This document shows positions 30,001-39,000 of a stretch of DNA of 64,000 nucleotides, piece by piece. Positions within the stretch are counted from its first letter, which is position 1. The number at the start of each line of letters is the position of its first letter. Source of the DNA: Alphaproteobacteria bacterium (GTDB lineage Bacteria; Pseudomonadota; Alphaproteobacteria; Rickettsiales; UBA1997); assembly GCA_014190355.1 (NCBI GenBank), contig BJGH01000003.1, forward strand, positions 159,315-223,314, in the 5' to 3' direction. The position numbers were made by a program.

Positions 30001-33000
30001 GCTTTTTTTATTTCATCAGCTGAAGCACTTTTCCCAACACCTAGGATTTCATAATAATCTCTTTTGCTCATTATTTTTGAGTTTAAATTAAGTTAATTTG
30101 TGATAAAATTTAATAACATTTTGCATTTCTAAATGCTTTAAGAAAAATATTTAAATTATAATTGCCTGTTTTTGAAAAAAAATATTAAAAAAACAAACTC
30201 CCATTAACTATAATTTATTTTTAAAGATTTTATCTTAAAATTTTGTGATATTTTGATTTAAATACAAGAAATGTTACAAGACATTGGAATTATTTTCCTC
30301 CCAAGTAATGTTTCGTTACTCAGTAAATCTAGAATTTTTACCTTTAATAAATTAAGAATTATTGTTTAGATTTGCAAGTGTTGAATTTAAAAAAACTTTT
30401 AAATTTTTATAAATTTTTTAACCAATTTAAAAATTTTTCAAAAGCTAATGCGCGATGAGAGATTTGATGCTTGAAATAAGGTTGTAATTGAGCAAATGTT
30501 TGAGCCATTCCATCTTTAATAAAAATTGGATCATAACCAAAACCAAATTCGCCAATTGGTTTGAAACTAATCTTTCCATCAACTCGCCCTTCAAAATTTT
30601 TAGCGAGATTGGTTTTAGGATCAAAAAAAGACAAATCGCAAATGAAGCAGGCTTTAGCTATTTTATCGTCATTGAATCCTAACTTAGCTAACTCTTTGAA
30701 GATTTTTTCAAAAGCAAAAGGGAAATTTTTTTGACCAGTTTTCGGATCAATAGCATATCTTGCCGAATAAACCCCAGGCTGATTATTAAGAGGTAAAATA
30801 CATAAACCAGAATCATCGGCTAAGGATGGAAGGTTAGTTTTTTGGGCATAATATTTAGCTTTCAGTAGTGAATTTTGGGCAAATGTTTGACCAGTCTCAT
30901 TAGGCTCAGCAATGTTAAATGACAAAGGCGAAATAGCTTTGATGTTGATATGTTCGAGCAGGGAAGTTATTTCCTTGATTTTCCCTAAATTATTACTTGC
31001 TACTAGGATTTCTTGATATTTTTTTGACACTCGAGTGAAGTTTAAAAGTTTAAGGTTTTGAAATTTTTGAGATTTTAAAAACCTAAAATTAACAATTATT
31101 TAAGAAGATTAATAATTAGTTAATTCTAACAAAGAATCTTAGCAACTCTTAAAAACTATCTAGTATTAATATTAAAGAAAACAGCCTTTGTCCCAAAGTT
31201 TATAAGCTAAGCTTGGCAAGCTTGGATTTATTTTATTATTTACGCTTGAGCTTCACTAGCCTTGGCTTCTTGTTCTTTAGCTAGTTTTTCTTTAGCTTTT
31301 TTCTTTAGATTTGAACCTTTAGCTTTTGGTTTATAGTTTGGCTTGTATTTTTCAGCACCTTTAACACCCAGATTAATTAAGAATTTAGCAACTCTTTCGC
31401 TTGGCTGAGCACCAACAGTTAACCAATGTTCAATGCGCTCTTTGTTAATAACAACTCTTTTTTCATCGCTATCACCAAGTAAAGGGTTGTAAGTTCCAAG
31501 TTTTTCAATGAACTTAGAATCACGTGGAGAAGTGCTATTTGTAACTAAAATACGATAGAAAGGAACACCTTTTCTACCACCTAAAGAAAGACGAATTTTT
31601 AACATTTGAATAATTATTTTATATTTTTTGACAGTAAGGATTTGATGATTTTAATGTCTTAAGAAATAATTACAAGCAAAAAAATTAATAGTTTTATTTA
31701 AAATCTTTTTACTCAACTTTGGCTTGCAATAATTCTTCGATTTTTTTGATTAATTTTTCATCTTCAGGAGCTGTGGTTGAGGCAAAGTAATCAACCAAAT
31801 TGCCACTGCGATCAACCAAATATTTATGAAAATTCCACTTCGGTGCAGTTCCAAAACCTAAAGTTTTTTTAGCTTGCAAATAGAATTGATGAGCATTATC
31901 TCCACTAACAACCTCTTTTCTTGCTACCGGAAAACTTAAACCATAATTATACTTACAAAATTTTTGAATTTCTTCGTCTTTTTCAAATTCCTGTCCACCA
32001 AAATCAGCACTAGGTACAGCAATAATGACCAAACCCTGCTCTTGATATTTTTTATATAATTTTTCTAAACCTGCATATTGTTTAGTAAATCCACATTTTG
32101 AAGCGGTATTAATGACCAGCAAAACCTTACCCTTAAAATCACTAAGCAATAAATCTTTACCATCAAATTGCTTGAATTTAAATTGATAAAAATTAACATT
32201 TTTAGCTTGAGAATCTTTGGCTTGAAATATTGAGAATATTGACATAGAGCAGAAAATAATAATTAGGGATTTGCAAAACTTCATAACTTTTAAACTTTTA
32301 ATTTTTTCTTATTTGTTTTTTTTAAGTTATTATCCTTGCAAAAAATTATTTTAAAAGATAAATTTGGAAAAATTTTTAAAATATTTTTACTTAAAATCAA
32401 AAAATTTAGGCAAAAGAAATATCAAAAAAATGTATAAACTCTCAGCAAAAAAACTCCACAAACCCTTCAGTAACAAAATTGATGAGGGTAATTTCTTTTA
32501 TTATGTAAAAAAAGTTTTGCAAGCTGATAAACCGATTTTTATCACTGCCATAACATACGGCGTAATCATCAGTATCTTAAGTTTAGCTACCCCAATTTGC
32601 GTTCAACTACTGATCAATTCAGTTGCTTTTACAGCATTATTTCAACCAATCCTCGTCTTGGGTTTCATTTTGTTAATTCTGGTTGGGTTATATGGTTTAG
32701 CAAATATTTTACAATTTCACGTTAGCGAAATTTTTCAAAGAAGATTTTTTGCAAGAATGGGTTATGAAGTTGGTATGTCTTTACTTAACGCTAATCATCG
32801 CGATTTTGAAGAAGCCAATCAAACCGAATTAGTCAATCGTTTTTTTGAAACTATGGCAATTCAAAAAACCATTCCCAAACTTTTAAATAAAACTTTTACC
32901 ACTTTCTTCCAATCAATTATCAGCTTATTGCTAATTGCCTGTTATCATCCCTTTTTTCTAGTTTTTACAATTGGCATTCCCTTCGCAGTTTATGTGGTCT

Positions 33001-36000: not shown

Positions 36001-39000
36001 ATCAACTTTCTTTAAATCGTCAAAAACAACTTCAAGCAAGAGCTAAGCAAGGCGATATTGCTGAAATTGTAGTTGTTGAAAATCGTAAAAATCTTTTAAA
36101 ACGTAAAGCATCATTGGTCAAAATTCGCCAAGAATTTGAAAGCGATTGTTTGTATCTGTCATTATTTTACCGCGATGAAGAGTCCAAGCCGATAGTTACT
36201 AGTCTTGCCAATTTAGCAAAAATTCCTTCAACTCTTCCCAAACCTCCAAATGAAAAAGAGTTTAAAAATAGTCAAGAATTAGCTTTGAATAAACGCCCTG
36301 AAATTCGTTTGCTTAAAATTAAAAATGATGAAGAAAGCAATAAATTAAAGCTTGCCAAAAACTCGCTTCAACCGCAATTAGATGTTGACGTAGGAGCATC
36401 AAAAGATCAAGGTGCAGGACCAATATCTCGTAGCGAAGCCAATAATTATGCCAATATCACCATGTCAATGCCTCTTCAGCTTCGCGAAGCTCGTGGAAAA
36501 GTTGGTTCTAGCGAAGCAAAAATCAGCGCTTTAAAATATCAAAGATCACTTTTGGAAGATCAAATTAAAGTTGAAATTGATCAGATTTTAGTCAAGGTTC
36601 TTATGATCAACGAAACTCACAATCTCTTAAGCGAAGAAGTTAAACTCGCCGAAATTCTACAAAATTCTGAGGTTGAAAAATTTAAACACGGAGCAAGCAA
36701 TTTCTTTTTAGTAAACATTCGCGAACAAGATCTCGCCTCATCTAAAGCAGCATTGGCCGAGGTTTACAAAGAATATCAAAACTCACTAGCAGACTACAAA
36801 CTAGCCGTATTTGATAATAAAGATATCGTCGAATTAAAATAAGTTTTCAAAGAAAATTCTAAAATAAATTAAGAAAATAACTAAATATTATTTTAAAAAA
36901 TTTGTAAAAAAATTATCAATAAAACAAGCTCAGCTGTTGATGAGGCTTTTTATGTTCATTAACATTTTCAATAAAATATTCGGTTCTCAATTTTTGTTCT
37001 TCATTTAAAAATTGCTCTCTTCTTATTAAAACTCTTAAAATATCGCCCTTTCTAAACTCTTCATTTTCATCTACCCTTCTTAAAAAATCCAAATCCTCTA
37101 TCGTCGCATAAAAACTAGATTGACCATCATTTACATACCATTTATTTTTATCTTTAAAAGACAAAGAGATAATATTGAGATTAGTATTAAATTTAACCGG
37201 TTCTTCAATCATTACTTCTTTTGCTGGTGGACATTTAAAATATTCAAATTCATGTTTTTTTACATCAAAAAAATCTTGGCAATTCTCTGGCTTAATTACA
37301 CATAGATCTACTCCGTTTTTTCCTAGAGGAGAAACCATTTCTTCAAGAGATTTTCTTAATTGCCAATTTTCGTATAGCTTTATAACCTGCTCATTAGTTT
37401 CAAAAATTTCATCATCAATTTCAATTATAACAAGATTATCTTTTGTGTATTTTTTTGTTGGTTTTCTATTTTTCAAAAATTTTAACAACTTCCATAAACA
37501 ACCAGCTCCACCAAATATAATAGCAGCTAATTCAGAAGCATTTATTAAAGCCTCTGCATTTTGACTAGTTAATAAATCGGATACTTTATCAATTATGTTC
37601 TGATCTATTCGAAAGTTAATTTTAAAAGATCCAGCTTCCAAATTAGATTTGACCTTTACTTGAATTTTTGTTTTGCCTAAGTTTAGTGTCTTATTTGCCT
37701 CATTTAAAAGACCATCAAGACCTAGTATCGCAGATGATAATTCACGAGGATTTATTTCATGGTTTTTTAAACCATCCCCGTCATATATTAATTGAAGGTT
37801 CATTGTAGTGTTATATTTAAATTAATTAAACATTAAAATTTTTATTTTATTATTTTAAAAAATCTTTCTACTGTTTTAAATAGCTTCGTCATTATAAATA
37901 ATAAAATTTCTAATATTTCTGAGTTTTAATATTTTTTTCATAATTTTAATATTGCTAAAATCAAAATTATTGTCAATTATTTTAATATTTCTAAATTCTA
38001 AAAAGTTAATTTTGATCTTTTAAATAGATGGCTCAAAAACAATTTTAAGAAATTTATCCAAAAATATATTTTTAAAAAACTTAAAAATATTTTTAATTTA
38101 TTTTATAATTATAAATTTATTAAGCAAATATATTTAAATAAACTTAACGATAAAGCAATAAAAAAAATAATTATTAAAGACAAATGTTAAAAAATAATAA
38201 AGTTAGTGCAATTAAAGTTAAATCAATAATTAAGACTTTTTTAAAACCACAAAATCTGTGCTGTGTTCTAACAATTATTGCAATCTTAAGTTATGTTTTG
38301 TTAAAAATTTTTGCTTATCAAAATATCGCTCCTTATCCTCTAATTGCGATAATTTTTAGCTTTGGGCTAATTCAACTTTTGCAAATTTTTAAAAAAATTT
38401 TACGGGGTAATTTAGGAGCGGATGTTATTGCTTTCATTGCTTTAGCTTTAGCAATTTATTTGCATGAATATTTAACAGCCAATCTGTTAATTTTAATGAT
38501 AGCCAGCGGACAAGGCCTTGAAGAATATGCCTCAAGCAAAGCCTCTTTCGTTTTGGAAGCTTTAGCATCAAGAAATGTTCCCATCGCTCATTTAAAAATT
38601 AATAATCAAATTTCTGAAATCAAAGTTGACCAAATCCAGGTTAACGATTGCTTGGCAATTTTACCTCACGAAATATGCCCAGTTGATGGTGAAGTGATCG
38701 AAGGAATGAGCACAATGGATGAATCTTATCTTACTGGCGAGCCATTTCACATCAGCAAAACAATTGGCTCAAAAGTTTTATCAGGAGCAATAAATGGCGA
38801 AAATTTATTGTTAATTCGTGCTGAAAAATTAGCCAAAGAATCGCGATACGCCAAGATCATCGAAGTTATGAAGCAAGCCAAAGACCAAAAACCCCAGATA
38901 CGCAAATTAGCCGATAAAATTGGGGCAATTTTTGCCCCACTTGCTTTGCTGATTGCCTTTGCAAGCTATTATTTTACTAACAGTTTAGAAAATTTTTTAG

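Follow-up and report, generated by a model that had tools for sequence, protein, structure and literature searches.

A three-gene export-type operon whose ABC-fold protein carries a degenerate, selectively maintained nucleotide-binding domain

What might an exporter of the ABC type do with a nucleotide-binding domain (NBD) in which most of the catalytic motifs are altered? The question is raised by three genes on the forward strand of the 64-kb stretch of DNA analyzed here (the window): an ABC gene (32430..34151; ATG start, 573 aa), an adaptor gene (34148..35197; 349 aa) and an outer-membrane factor (OMF) gene (35190..36842; 550 aa), all called as ORFs and recognized by Pfam. An earlier note on this DNA had read them as one translationally coupled operon, and this is confirmed by the ATGA in which the ABC stop and the adaptor start overlap (34148..34151) and by the 8 nt shared by the adaptor stop and the OMF start (ATGAGTAA, 35190..35197). 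All three genes are intact and coupled in translation, every domain is subject to strong purifying selection, and the module that they form is conserved across several phyla, with unrelated flanks and without a linked partner ABC gene. An in-frame TTG at 32364 was considered as the start of the ABC gene and rejected, as the N-termini of homologs give it no support. The genome that carries them is AT-rich and probably reduced.

The ABC protein is predicted with confidence to adopt the fold of a full-length type IV exporter located in the inner membrane, with a six-helix transmembrane domain (TMD; residues 1-335, 32430..33434), assigned on superfamily hallmark residues, and a pseudo-NBD (residues 336-573, 33435..34151), assigned on alignment to the ABCB1 NBDs, pLDDT (~90) and dN/dS. 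Pfam detects ABC_membrane and ABC_tran, the latter weakly (35.6 bits) and over profile positions 24-135 only, so that the Walker A region is missed. In the AF2 monomer model (pLDDT 79.5, pTM 0.77) the TMD helices cover residues 22-332, and type IV ABC exporters match the model over its full length in Foldseek (TM 0.6-0.65). Homologs of the protein numbered 984, and genomes probed with peptide patterns, GQLVAxE among them, gave ~600 pattern matches and 594 confirmed relatives. Our conservation table lists P55, Y172-H173-P174, S206, K209, Q260, G279-G280, G291-Q-L-V-A-x-E297 and Y318 as at least 95% conserved both in the degenerate clade to which the protein belongs and in its sister clade (see below). 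The hot spots of conservation in the membrane domain are periplasmic loops, namely YHP in the TM3-TM4 loop (32943..32951; 95-100% in both clades), a loop of low pLDDT in the monomer model, and the near-invariant G291-Q-L-V-A-S-E297 at the TM5-TM6 turn and the start of TM6 (33300..33320; conservation fractions of 1.00 for G291, 1.00 for Q292 and 0.99 for E297).

The motifs of the pseudo-NBD were placed by residue-level alignment to the ABCB1 NBDs. The resulting positions agree with those given in the earlier note, and each of the changes it had listed, in the P-loop, the Q-loop glutamine and LSGGQ, is borne out; an intact Walker A or signature at an offset was searched for by alignment and none is present. 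In the degenerate Walker A (F379-TNGYSTKK-I388, 33564..33593), GNSGAGKS has become TNGYSTKK, the first, fourth and sixth positions changing from glycine to T, Y and T, the lysine being kept and the Ser/Thr being replaced by lysine. None of 117 close relatives has glycine at any of these three positions, and in the AF2 model the P-loop is collapsed to a two-residue loop/turn, with the helix beginning at Y383. The Q-loop position is occupied by N428 (33711..33713), which is asparagine in 101 of the 117 relatives and glutamine in none. The X-loop and signature have given way to P478-NGWPFSESEK488 (33861..33893), where FSESE aligns with LSGGQ, and this replacement is itself conserved: P478, G480 and P482 are found in nearly all of the 117 relatives and S-E-S-E in 91-109 of them, G480 and P482 being 94% conserved over the whole degenerate clade. 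Walker B, ILLLDE in ABCB1, reads IIIADE (residues 503-508; 33936..33962 with the D-loop Asp511), and the H-loop AHR reads SHR (His538, 34041..34043). Both had been described earlier as kept, which is true of this protein but not of the family, since D507 occurs in 25/117 close relatives and 3% of the clade, and position 538 is His in 46/117 and Asn in 63/117; these residues consequently argue only weakly for residual catalysis. E508 is present in 116/117 relatives and D511 in 117/117, and in the sublineage of the protein the lysine of Walker A, the DE of Walker B and the H-loop His are all retained. Motifs kept by the NBDs of the degenerate clade are [ST]-G-[WY]-P-[LF]-S at the X-loop/signature, the D-loop Asp and YFSNR. 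With P-loop, Q-loop and signature obliterated, canonical binding or hydrolysis of ATP by a homodimer is implausible, as had been anticipated.

The degenerate ABC proteins apparently form a large, widespread and previously undescribed clade, with members in Rickettsiales-like MAGs, Sphingomonadales, Caulobacterales, Gammaproteobacteria, Bdellovibrionota and Myxococcota. When 187 non-redundant superfamily members are placed in a tree by their membrane domain only, they separate cleanly into 97 short forms, in which GK[S/T] is found in 0/97 and the Walker B Asp is missing from 97%, and 90 long forms, in which GK[S/T] is found in 68/90 and the Walker B Asp in 98%; by this tree, the degeneracy is ancient and clade-wide. 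The uncharacterized long-form sister clade (~700-790 aa; for example P0235/L004 and the planctomycetotal L051, L056 and L066) shares YHP, GQLVAxE and other membrane-domain hallmarks, a PLS-type signature, the absence of the Q-loop Gln and the ABC-adaptor-OMF operon, but differs in keeping GxxGxGK[ST] (68/90), in having an extra N-terminal domain of ~180 aa, with one faint C39-like hint, and in its adaptors of 445-559 aa.

According to its Pfam matches (HlyD_3, Biotin_lipoyl_2 and HlyD_D23) and AF2 model, the adaptor consists of an N-terminal TM helix (22-44), a lipoyl domain, a short alpha-hairpin (helices 102-141 and 147-181, ~40 residues each) and a beta-barrel, and is without a membrane-proximal domain. 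Foldseek ranks MacA (3fpp) first, then EmrA, AcrA and ZneB, and HlyD is absent from the top 50 structural matches; the model thus predicts a membrane-anchored, MacA/EmrA-like adaptor with a short hairpin, not an HlyD-like one. Of the three genes it is conserved best (dN/dS 0.03), and its juxtamembrane segment is among the most conserved residues of the system. The OMF is a divergent TolC/OEP family protein with a signal peptide (OEP in two stretches, 98.3 bits), for which sequence searches of NCBIfam and the PDB gave no match, and where the contig of a related locus reaches that far it almost always accompanies the other two genes.

The order ABC-adaptor-OMF recurs in ~80 genome loci of Alphaproteobacteria, Gammaproteobacteria, Bdellovibrionota, Myxococcota and Planctomycetota, among flanks that are unrelated between loci; free-living Sphingomonadales and Gammaproteobacteria commonly carry the module, which is also found in small Rickettsiales-like genomes. 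Flanks were scanned over 6-10 kb per genome. Within ~6 kb, a canonical NBD gene was found at 3 of 86 related loci (L058, L076 and L083), and the window contains no canonical ABC NBD, its sole Walker A match being an AAA_2/AAA-family ATPase (46272-47666). As noted earlier, no obvious substrate adjoins the operon: RTX/GG-repeat genes are absent from the window, and the 86 loci share no conserved substrate-like gene beside the module. About a dozen relatives have an OxyR-like or NhaR regulator directly upstream of the module, suggestive of stress efflux that is inducible. An ankyrin-repeat gene is located at 28339-28872 of the window, and one related locus (L005) has a HemolysinCabind protein ~2 kb upstream of the module.

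The explanation that we favor, with middling confidence, is a functional and dedicated tripartite exporter that uses no ATP at its own NBDs. It would consist of the ABC-fold inner-membrane protein, acting as a homodimer, the membrane-anchored MacA/EmrA-like adaptor and a TolC-like channel of its own. On this view nucleotide binding has been lost throughout the ancient inner-membrane clade, whose members lack P-loop, Mg-coordinating Ser/Thr, Q-loop and signature, and mostly the Walker B Asp too, but retain the NBD fold, the coupling helices and new conserved motifs, and the pseudo-NBDs may serve as an ATP-independent structural, dimerization or coupling module. One possible basis is a salt bridge across the dimer taking the place of ATP-Mg, formed through the Walker A S/T to K/R and signature Q to E changes. 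Position 387 is K/R in 54/97 degenerate members and S/T in 77/90 sister members, and position 487 is E/D in 73/97 and Q in 67/90, respectively; co-occurrence of basic 386/387 with acidic 487 is not above chance in the clade (59 observed vs ~55 expected). Energy is probably not drawn from ATP at the protein's own cassette as in textbook ABC pumps, and would come from another source, such as the proton-motive force or a substrate gradient. SbmA/BacA-like SLiPTs provide a precedent for an ATP-independent, proton-driven membrane domain of the ABC type IV fold, and their presumed ancestor is an ABC transporter of full length (PMC13316013). They are, however, importers without adaptor or OMF that have lost the NBD and coupling helices and carry a glutamate ladder, whereas the present proteins retain both the NBD fold and the coupling helices. 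Between the two clades, no acidic or protonatable membrane residue was gained specifically by the degenerate one, and conserved charged membrane residues are, if anything, better kept in the Walker-A-bearing sister clade, which argues against an SbmA-like ladder. EmrAB-TolC likewise combines a membrane-anchored adaptor lacking the membrane-proximal domain with a pump that is driven by protons and not by ATP, but its inner-membrane part is an MFS transporter and the hairpin of EmrA is much longer. MacAB-TolC is also an ABC/adaptor/OMF tripartite system, but MacB, whose ATPase is canonical, has the type VII fold with a large periplasmic domain. Conservation at the periplasmic face of the TMD and in the adaptor juxtamembrane segment, along with the efflux-type adaptor, points to a small molecule or peptide as cargo and not to an RTX-type protein; the cargo might be captured in the periplasm or outer leaflet.

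That the coupling helices persist and the NBD is under strong selection would fit equally well with an NBD that still relays an energy-dependent signal, from a partner ATPase or a non-canonical ligand. In the earlier suggestion of a canonical half-transporter encoded elsewhere, the operon would supply only the specialized half and the duct, and that half-transporter would bring the only active ATP site of the complex, as in TM287/288, TmrAB and CydDC. The conserved and selected NBD fold, coupling helices and D-loop Asp, the catalytic residues retained in the sublineage and the canonical ABC genes at the three loci mentioned above are in line with it, and known degenerate sites do occur beside a consensus site, in heterodimers or full transporters; in TM287/288, TmrAB, LmrCD, BmrCD and CydDC, non-consensus residues in the NBD motifs are both tolerated and conserved, with the degenerate site in a structural role (PMC7756269). 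In such heterodimers, however, the deviations are limited to single residues, ATP binding persists and an adjacent partner gene provides the consensus site, whereas here the entire P-loop is lost, so that a homodimer has two dead sites and, with the signature also missing, both composite sites of a heterodimer would be incomplete. Even one such site would be out of reach for most clade members, in which the Walker B Asp/Glu and H-loop His are missing as well. The two genes of a heterodimeric bacterial ABC exporter normally lie side by side, but at 83 of the 86 loci a canonical NBD gene is absent within ~6 kb, and the single-ABC operon of the Walker-A-bearing sister clade implies a homodimeric ancestor. 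Such pairing is thus disfavored, and we regard it as unlikely. It could alternatively be that the operon was simply decaying, its frames open by chance, as the loss of several catalytic motifs and an AT-rich, probably reduced genome might suggest. The ortholog comparison proposed earlier refutes this: dN/dS is ~0.05 in all three genes and 0.042-0.061 for the pseudo-NBD against close orthologs, where the membrane domain gives 0.050-0.051, so that purifying selection on the two domains appears about equally strong; 14 independent pairs across the clade give 0.04-0.22 for the NBD, and the orthologs examined are without frameshifts. Since the degenerate state has moreover been kept, with new conserved motifs, by 97 non-redundant lineages across phyla, decay is extremely improbable.

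Genuine type I secretion of an unlinked protein or peptide, for instance an ankyrin-repeat or other effector of a host-associated, Rickettsiales-like bacterium, might be driven by the proton-motive force or extracellular folding, with the pseudo-NBD docking the secretion signal. Type I secretion and bacteriocin exporters (HlyB TIGR01846, PrtD TIGR01842, LssB TIGR03375, the NHLP exporters TIGR03796/03797 and PCAT1) share the type IV fold and TMD-NBD order, are the best sequence and structure neighbors of the ABC protein, with NHLM_micro_ABC1, LssB, HlyB and PrtD as closest curated models, and are likewise encoded with a membrane-fusion protein and OMF. The long adaptors and C39-like hint of the sister clade, the HemolysinCabind protein and the ankyrin-repeat gene could be taken in the same sense. 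All the NCBIfam models for type I secretion nevertheless score 5-10 times under their cut-offs (67-109 bits against 510-853), and the Walker A glycines, Q-loop Gln, LSGGQ and C39 or C39-like domain of these exporters are missing here, as is a linked or conserved substrate gene. The adaptor is MacA-like with a short hairpin, and the module is common in free-living bacteria, so that we consider this reading quite unlikely; of the earlier description as a type I secretion-like ABC-HlyD-TolC operon, the layout stands and the HlyD-type adaptor does not. If the complex had given up transport, it might be a static scaffold or tether across the envelope, or a passive channel under regulation, that serves envelope integrity or signaling and uses the ABC-fold dimer as a mere anchor in the inner membrane. 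Such a role would fit strong conservation despite the loss of all catalytic motifs, the adaptor being the most conserved component and the retention of the module in small genomes. This seems very unlikely to us, given the conserved periplasmic-gate and coupling-helix residues typical of alternating-access transporters, the complete adaptor-OMF duct of the efflux pump type and the upstream regulators.

The low-complexity N-terminal linker that had been noticed in the TolC homolog is real. It spans residues ~28-105 (35271..35504) and connects the signal peptide to the OMF core; the alignment indicates a lineage-specific insertion, shorter in one ortholog (L087) and missing from another (L089) and from all more distant ones, with OMF lengths of 550 aa here, 523 and 483 aa in those two and 462-489 aa elsewhere. 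Its dN/dS is 0.17-0.47, compared with 0.07-0.09 for the core.

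Judged by its aligned residues, the nucleotide pocket of the ABC protein (32430-34151, + strand) cannot be canonical. Motifs were placed by residue-by-residue HMMER alignment to both nucleotide-binding domains (NBDs) of ABCB1, and the family alignment agrees. TNGYSTKK stands opposite GNSGAGKS and departs from the Walker A consensus GxxGxGK[ST]: all three glycines are lost, the Lys is retained, and a Lys stands where the Mg-coordinating Ser/Thr would be. Asn428 occupies the position of the Q-loop Gln and FSESE that of the signature LSGGQ, [FL]SESE being conserved in the sublineage. 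An earlier note had placed the degenerate P-loop, Q-loop and signature at exactly these positions, and no intact Walker A or signature motif was found at an offset in either the ABCB1 or the family alignment. The collinearity with exporter NBDs also held up, in that every motif aligns in place and the NBD superposes on exporter NBDs in the structural model. The protein passes the Pfam threshold for ABC_tran (PF00005; 35.6 bits against a cut-off of 25) and has the NBD fold but lacks the defining catalytic motifs, the Pfam match starting at profile position 24, past Walker A. Among the 117 closest full-length relatives, none has a Gly at the Walker A glycine positions, 39 have the Walker A Lys, and the Q-loop position is Asn in 101 and Gln in none, while the replacement motif P-x-G-[WY]-P-[FL]-S-E-S-E shows almost no variation, E508 occurs in 116 and the D-loop D511 in all 117. 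The Walker B (IIIADE) and H-loop (SHR) that had been described as kept are indeed present in the window protein; however, since the Walker B Asp (D507) is found in only 25/117 and the H-loop His (H538) in 46/117 of these relatives, they are features of a sublineage and not of the family.

The suggestion that the system might be decaying is refuted by the substitution pattern. By the Nei-Gojobori method, comparison with a 91%-identical ortholog (locus L007) gave a dN/dS of 0.058 for the whole ABC gene, 0.051 for its membrane domain, 0.061 for its NBD, 0.032 for the adaptor and 0.089 for the outer-membrane factor (OMF), and comparison with a further ortholog (L087) gave 0.042 for the NBD. Since dS is near saturation in these comparisons (0.9-1.3), the test was repeated on 14 independent pairs across the clade, several of them at dS 0.3-0.8, with omega values of 0.04-0.22 for the NBD and 0.012-0.18 for the membrane domain. 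Purifying selection constrains the pseudo-NBD almost as strongly as the membrane domain, and its degenerate motifs are characteristic of the family and no sign of decay.

Searching 5.8 billion proteins with the ABC protein gave 984 homologs, the best of which are full-length, 41-100% identical, and come from Rickettsiales, Pelagibacterales and other alphaproteobacterial metagenome-assembled genomes (MAGs); the window's three proteins are themselves identical to GDX36187-GDX36189 of an "Alphaproteobacteria bacterium" MAG. When 1.84 billion cluster representatives were searched with a profile, 1,882 proteins reached E<=1e-30, with top matches at 400-860 bits, whereas the nearest curated ABC families reach only about 100 bits. 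Scanning one genome per species gave at least 600 pattern-matched stretches, 594 of which were confirmed as relatives. The best 80 loci among these, which were kept, lie in Alphaproteobacteria (Rickettsiales MAGs; the Sphingomonadales Erythrobacter, Sphingobium, Novosphingobium and Sphingomonas; Kordiimonas; Caulobacterales) and in several Gammaproteobacteria, Bacteriovoracaceae, Halobacteriovorax, Myxococcota and Planctomycetota, and GxxGxGK[ST] is missing from 81 of the 87 sequences of these loci.

A neighbour-joining tree of 187 non-redundant sequences, built on the membrane domain only, shows a clean bipartition between a short-form clade that includes the window protein (97 members, median length 571 aa) and a long-form sister clade (90 members, median 714 aa). 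GK[ST] is present in none of the former and in 68 of the latter, and the Walker B Asp in 3% against 98%; the catalytic Glu (29% and 30%) and the H-loop His (11% and 19%) are infrequent on both sides. The sister clade also has a Q-loop Gln in at most 2% of its members, a signature reading PLSxGQ, and at least 15 further, scattered P-loop erosions. Its proteins, of about 700-790 aa (L004 8001-10274, L051, L056, L066, L083, P0235, P0251, P0280 and others), carry an extra N-terminal domain (about 180 aa, in many cases with P-L-x-P-C-D at its end) for which Pfam gave no match at E<=10 except one faint Peptidase_C39_2 (E=0.05); their adaptors are longer (445-559 aa), and the three-gene operon is the same as in the degenerate short-form clade. 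Midpoint rooting was set aside because the root landed on a long AT-rich Rickettsiales branch, so that only the unrooted bipartition is used and we claim the bipartition and not a direction of change; the simplest reading is one ancient loss.

Two positions that face each other across the canonical NBD dimer differ between the clades. Position 387, the Walker A Ser/Thr, is K/R in 54/97 sequences of the degenerate clade and S/T in 77/90 of the sister clade, and position 487, the signature Gln, is E/D in 73/97 and Gln in 67/90, respectively. This switch suggests that a salt bridge may have taken the place of ATP-Mg. Covariation within the degenerate clade was considered and rejected, as a basic residue at 386/387 co-occurs with an acidic 487 no more often than expected (59 observed, about 55 expected), and the between-clade switch alone stands.

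The AlphaFold2 model of the ABC protein (mean pLDDT 79.5, pTM 0.77, NBD about 90) has the domain-swapped architecture of a type IV exporter, with six long transmembrane (TM) helices and intracellular coupling helices, and Foldseek matches it over its full length to NdvA, TmrAB, PCAT1, MsbA and HlyB (TM-score 0.6-0.65, 15-19% identity); the ABC_membrane (PF00664) score of 27 bits falls just below the cut-off of 28. In place of the eight-residue phosphate-binding loop, this model has a two-residue turn between T380, the last residue of the strand that leads into the former P-loop, and Y383, the first residue of the helix that follows. When 149 non-redundant degenerate sequences were compared with 59 Walker-A-bearing relatives, all residues at least 95% conserved in both groups lay within the membrane domain: P55, Y172-H173-P174 in the TM3-TM4 periplasmic loop, S206, K209, Q260, G279-G280, G291-Q-L-V-A-x-E297 at the TM5-TM6 turn and start of TM6, and Y318. 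The motifs on the periplasmic face coincide with the sole low-confidence loops of the monomer model, as would be expected if these loops packed against another subunit or the adaptor. Several charged residues of the intracellular loops (E133, E205, R250, K309, K312, E315, K326, R495) are less conserved in the degenerate than in the Walker-A-bearing group.

The adaptor (34148-35197, + strand) is the most conserved of the three proteins, with 56-78% identity among diverse relatives and a dN/dS of 0.03. It has the lipoyl domain, alpha-hairpin and beta-barrel of a periplasmic adaptor by Pfam (HlyD_3 49.6, Biotin_lipoyl_2 36.8 and HlyD_D23 32.1 bits, all above cut-offs), by model and by Foldseek. 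In the model (pLDDT 76), an N-terminal TM helix (22-44) precedes these domains, the hairpin helices are about 40 and 35 residues long, and there is no membrane-proximal domain. The closest structures are MacA, EmrA, AcrA, ZneB and MexA, HlyD falling outside the top 50. An invariant juxtamembrane segment, PWQQTxKGxGYVIAxDPNDRxQ, follows directly after the TM helix, and FEGWPxxQxSGWP and the C-terminal LGYExWRQxNxFPPxFD are likewise invariant; the FEGWP...SGWP stretch (249-261) has pLDDT <50. The OMF (35190-36842, + strand) contains two OEP (PF02321) stretches (98.3 bits against a cut-off of 22) and has no NCBIfam match and no PDB sequence match. Its low-complexity N-terminal linker, which had been pointed out before, is present at about residues 28-105 and is a lineage-specific insertion that evolves faster than the core (dN/dS 0.17-0.47).

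The ABC-adaptor-OMF order on one strand, usually with overlapping or abutting genes, recurs in nearly all loci with enough contig, and the adaptor and OMF are dedicated partners, because in these loci their scores against their counterparts in the window are as good as those of the ABC protein. In the window, the overlaps claimed in the earlier note, ATGA at 34148-34151 between the ABC and adaptor genes and 8 nt at 35190-35197 (ATGAGTAA) between the adaptor and OMF genes, are both found on direct reading. The ABC gene is preceded by an in-frame TTG at 32364; the start is likely to be 32430, because homolog N-termini begin at the MYK... methionine. A promoter and terminator scan of 32200-37000 gave no more sites than shuffled sequences. 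Taken with the substitution pattern, the gene arrangement indicates a functional, selected and, as its overlapping frames imply, translationally coupled module of ABC-fold protein, adaptor and OMF.

We do not assign this module to any named subfamily. The label 'type I secretion-like' is apt inasmuch as the assembly would work like a tripartite efflux or type I secretion system (T1SS), but the T1SS models (HlyB TIGR01846, 70.8 against a cut-off of 725.6; PrtD TIGR01842, 66.5 against 510.2; LssB TIGR03375, 89.8 against 693.1) and the long-hairpin HlyD-type adaptor (TIGR01843, 50.6 against 208.65 bits) fail to match. NHLP/Nif11 bacteriocin export (TIGR03796/03797/03794: 108.7 against 853, 85.9 against 709 and, for the adaptor, 29.4 against 156) uses two ABC genes plus HlyD, unlike the single ABC gene here, and the window protein and 10 diverse relatives all fell short of every NCBIfam cut-off. 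Our literature search, in which coverage was incomplete so that absence is not proof, turned up no account of this clade.

When the 687 flanking ORFs of 86 loci were clustered all-vs-all, no conserved fourth gene or substrate-like gene emerged; flanking genes vary between lineages and, apart from lineage-specific synteny, LysR regulators (OxyR-like, NhaR) are the sole neighbours that recur. The window likewise holds no RTX/GG-repeat or C-terminal-signal substrate, which bears out the reported lack of an adjacent one. The sole RTX-like neighbour among the 86 loci is a 1338-aa HemolysinCabind/Laminin_G_3 protein, which one MAG (L005 2131-6147) encodes about 2 kb upstream of an operon of the degenerate clade. 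In about a dozen unrelated genomes, the gene immediately upstream of the module encodes a LysR-family regulator, OxyR-like in seven loci (L014, L015, L021, L028, L033, L054, L059; 180-222 bits, below the OxyR cut-off of 329) and NhaR, above its cut-off, in four (L004, L066, L055, L074). Together with a divergent glutathione peroxidase gene (Pfam) upstream of the window's ABC gene (31709-32284), they hint that the module may be regulated by oxidative or ionic stress.

What defines ABC transporters is the ATP-driven dimerisation of their NBDs. To our knowledge, sites called degenerate are single-residue deviations, always beside a working site, whereas in this widespread and strongly selected clade the entire nucleotide pocket is gone in an apparent homodimer that comes with its own adaptor and outer-membrane channel. 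The main rival to a homodimer is a heterodimer with an unlinked canonical half-transporter. The second half-transporter gene of heterodimeric ABC exporters is normally adjacent; here, a six-frame regex scan found no second ABC NBD in the 64-kb window, the only hit being an AAA_2/AAA-family ATPase, canonical NBD genes flank only 3 of the 86 loci and are absent from the flanks of the other 83, and the sister clade's operon has a single ABC gene; the last two findings count against this rival. Precedent speaks for the heterodimer, as every degenerate site known is paired with a consensus one (PMC7756269). We nevertheless favour the homodimer, in which the pseudo-NBD would act as a nucleotide-free structural or coupling module and the energy for export would come not from ATP hydrolysis at the pseudo-NBDs but, for example, from the proton-motive force or a substrate gradient. 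A small molecule or peptide is a likelier cargo than an RTX-type protein, because the adaptor is of the efflux type, the periplasmic face is conserved and stress regulators lie beside relatives.

The type IV membrane-domain fold can be proton-driven, as in SbmA (PMC13316013). SbmA/BacA-like transporters (SLiPT), however, consist of the membrane domain only and have a glutamate ladder, whereas the window protein keeps its NBD and coupling helices; an SbmA-like ladder was rejected for it because, in the comparison of the 149 degenerate sequences with the 59 relatives, no acidic membrane residue was gained specifically in the degenerate clade. A bolder version of the homodimer reading, which we offer tentatively and consider rather doubtful, is that the clade has given up ATP for good in favour of another energy source or of gated facilitated export, with the pseudo-NBD retained as a nucleotide-free, constitutively dimerising pseudo-enzyme in which a Lys/Arg-Glu contact between the former Walker A and signature replaces ATP-Mg. 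If so, it would stand midway in evolution between primary ABC exporters and secondary transporters that have no NBD, such as SbmA, and would add a mode of energisation not recognised before to those of the reviewed ABC-, RND- and MFS-based tripartite systems (PMC8277102). In any case, what purpose an NBD fold unable to bind ATP serves, and whether a type IV exporter fold can run on another energy source with its cytoplasmic domain kept, are directly testable questions, and the Walker-A-bearing sister clade, the scattered P-loop erosions and the fully degenerate clade form a natural series with which loss of ATP dependence could be dissected. The current annotations "ABC transporter ATP-binding protein" and "multidrug efflux" are probably misleading. 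That even small Rickettsiales-like genomes keep the module suggests that its role, in the envelope or in detoxification, is important.

Some further neighbours deserve mention. DabB/DabA-like genes (Proton_antipo_M + DabA) lie immediately upstream of the module at L002 (6603-9984), L055, L074 and L082, in two distant lineages, a Rickettsiales-like MAG and Sphingomonas; this adjacency could be a coincidence or a functional link. Downstream of the window's operon, a 627-aa P-type ATPase (38184-40067, + strand; E1-E2_ATPase + Hydrolase) has a TPCPLL (CPx-like) motif and no N-terminal metal-binding domain, and is a conserved neighbour 3' of the OMF gene in close orthologs (L089). Between the two, in the window and in L087, stands a gene at 36916-37803 (- strand) matching NF053583, a 'LAPAL motif-containing putative phage structural protein' (230 bits against a cut-off of 60), which looks like a lineage-specific insertion because it is missing from L089, where the ATPase directly follows the OMF. 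An ankyrin-repeat protein of 177 aa (Ank_2), of a type typical of host-associated Rickettsiales-like bacteria, is encoded 3.5 kb upstream of the operon (28339-28872, + strand), and no link between the two was found. The lowest GC of the window, 0.24 against about 0.31, occurs at 22001-26000, where an ORF at 22558-25083 (+ strand) encodes an 841-aa ComEC-like 'Competence' protein (Pfam, 185.8 bits).
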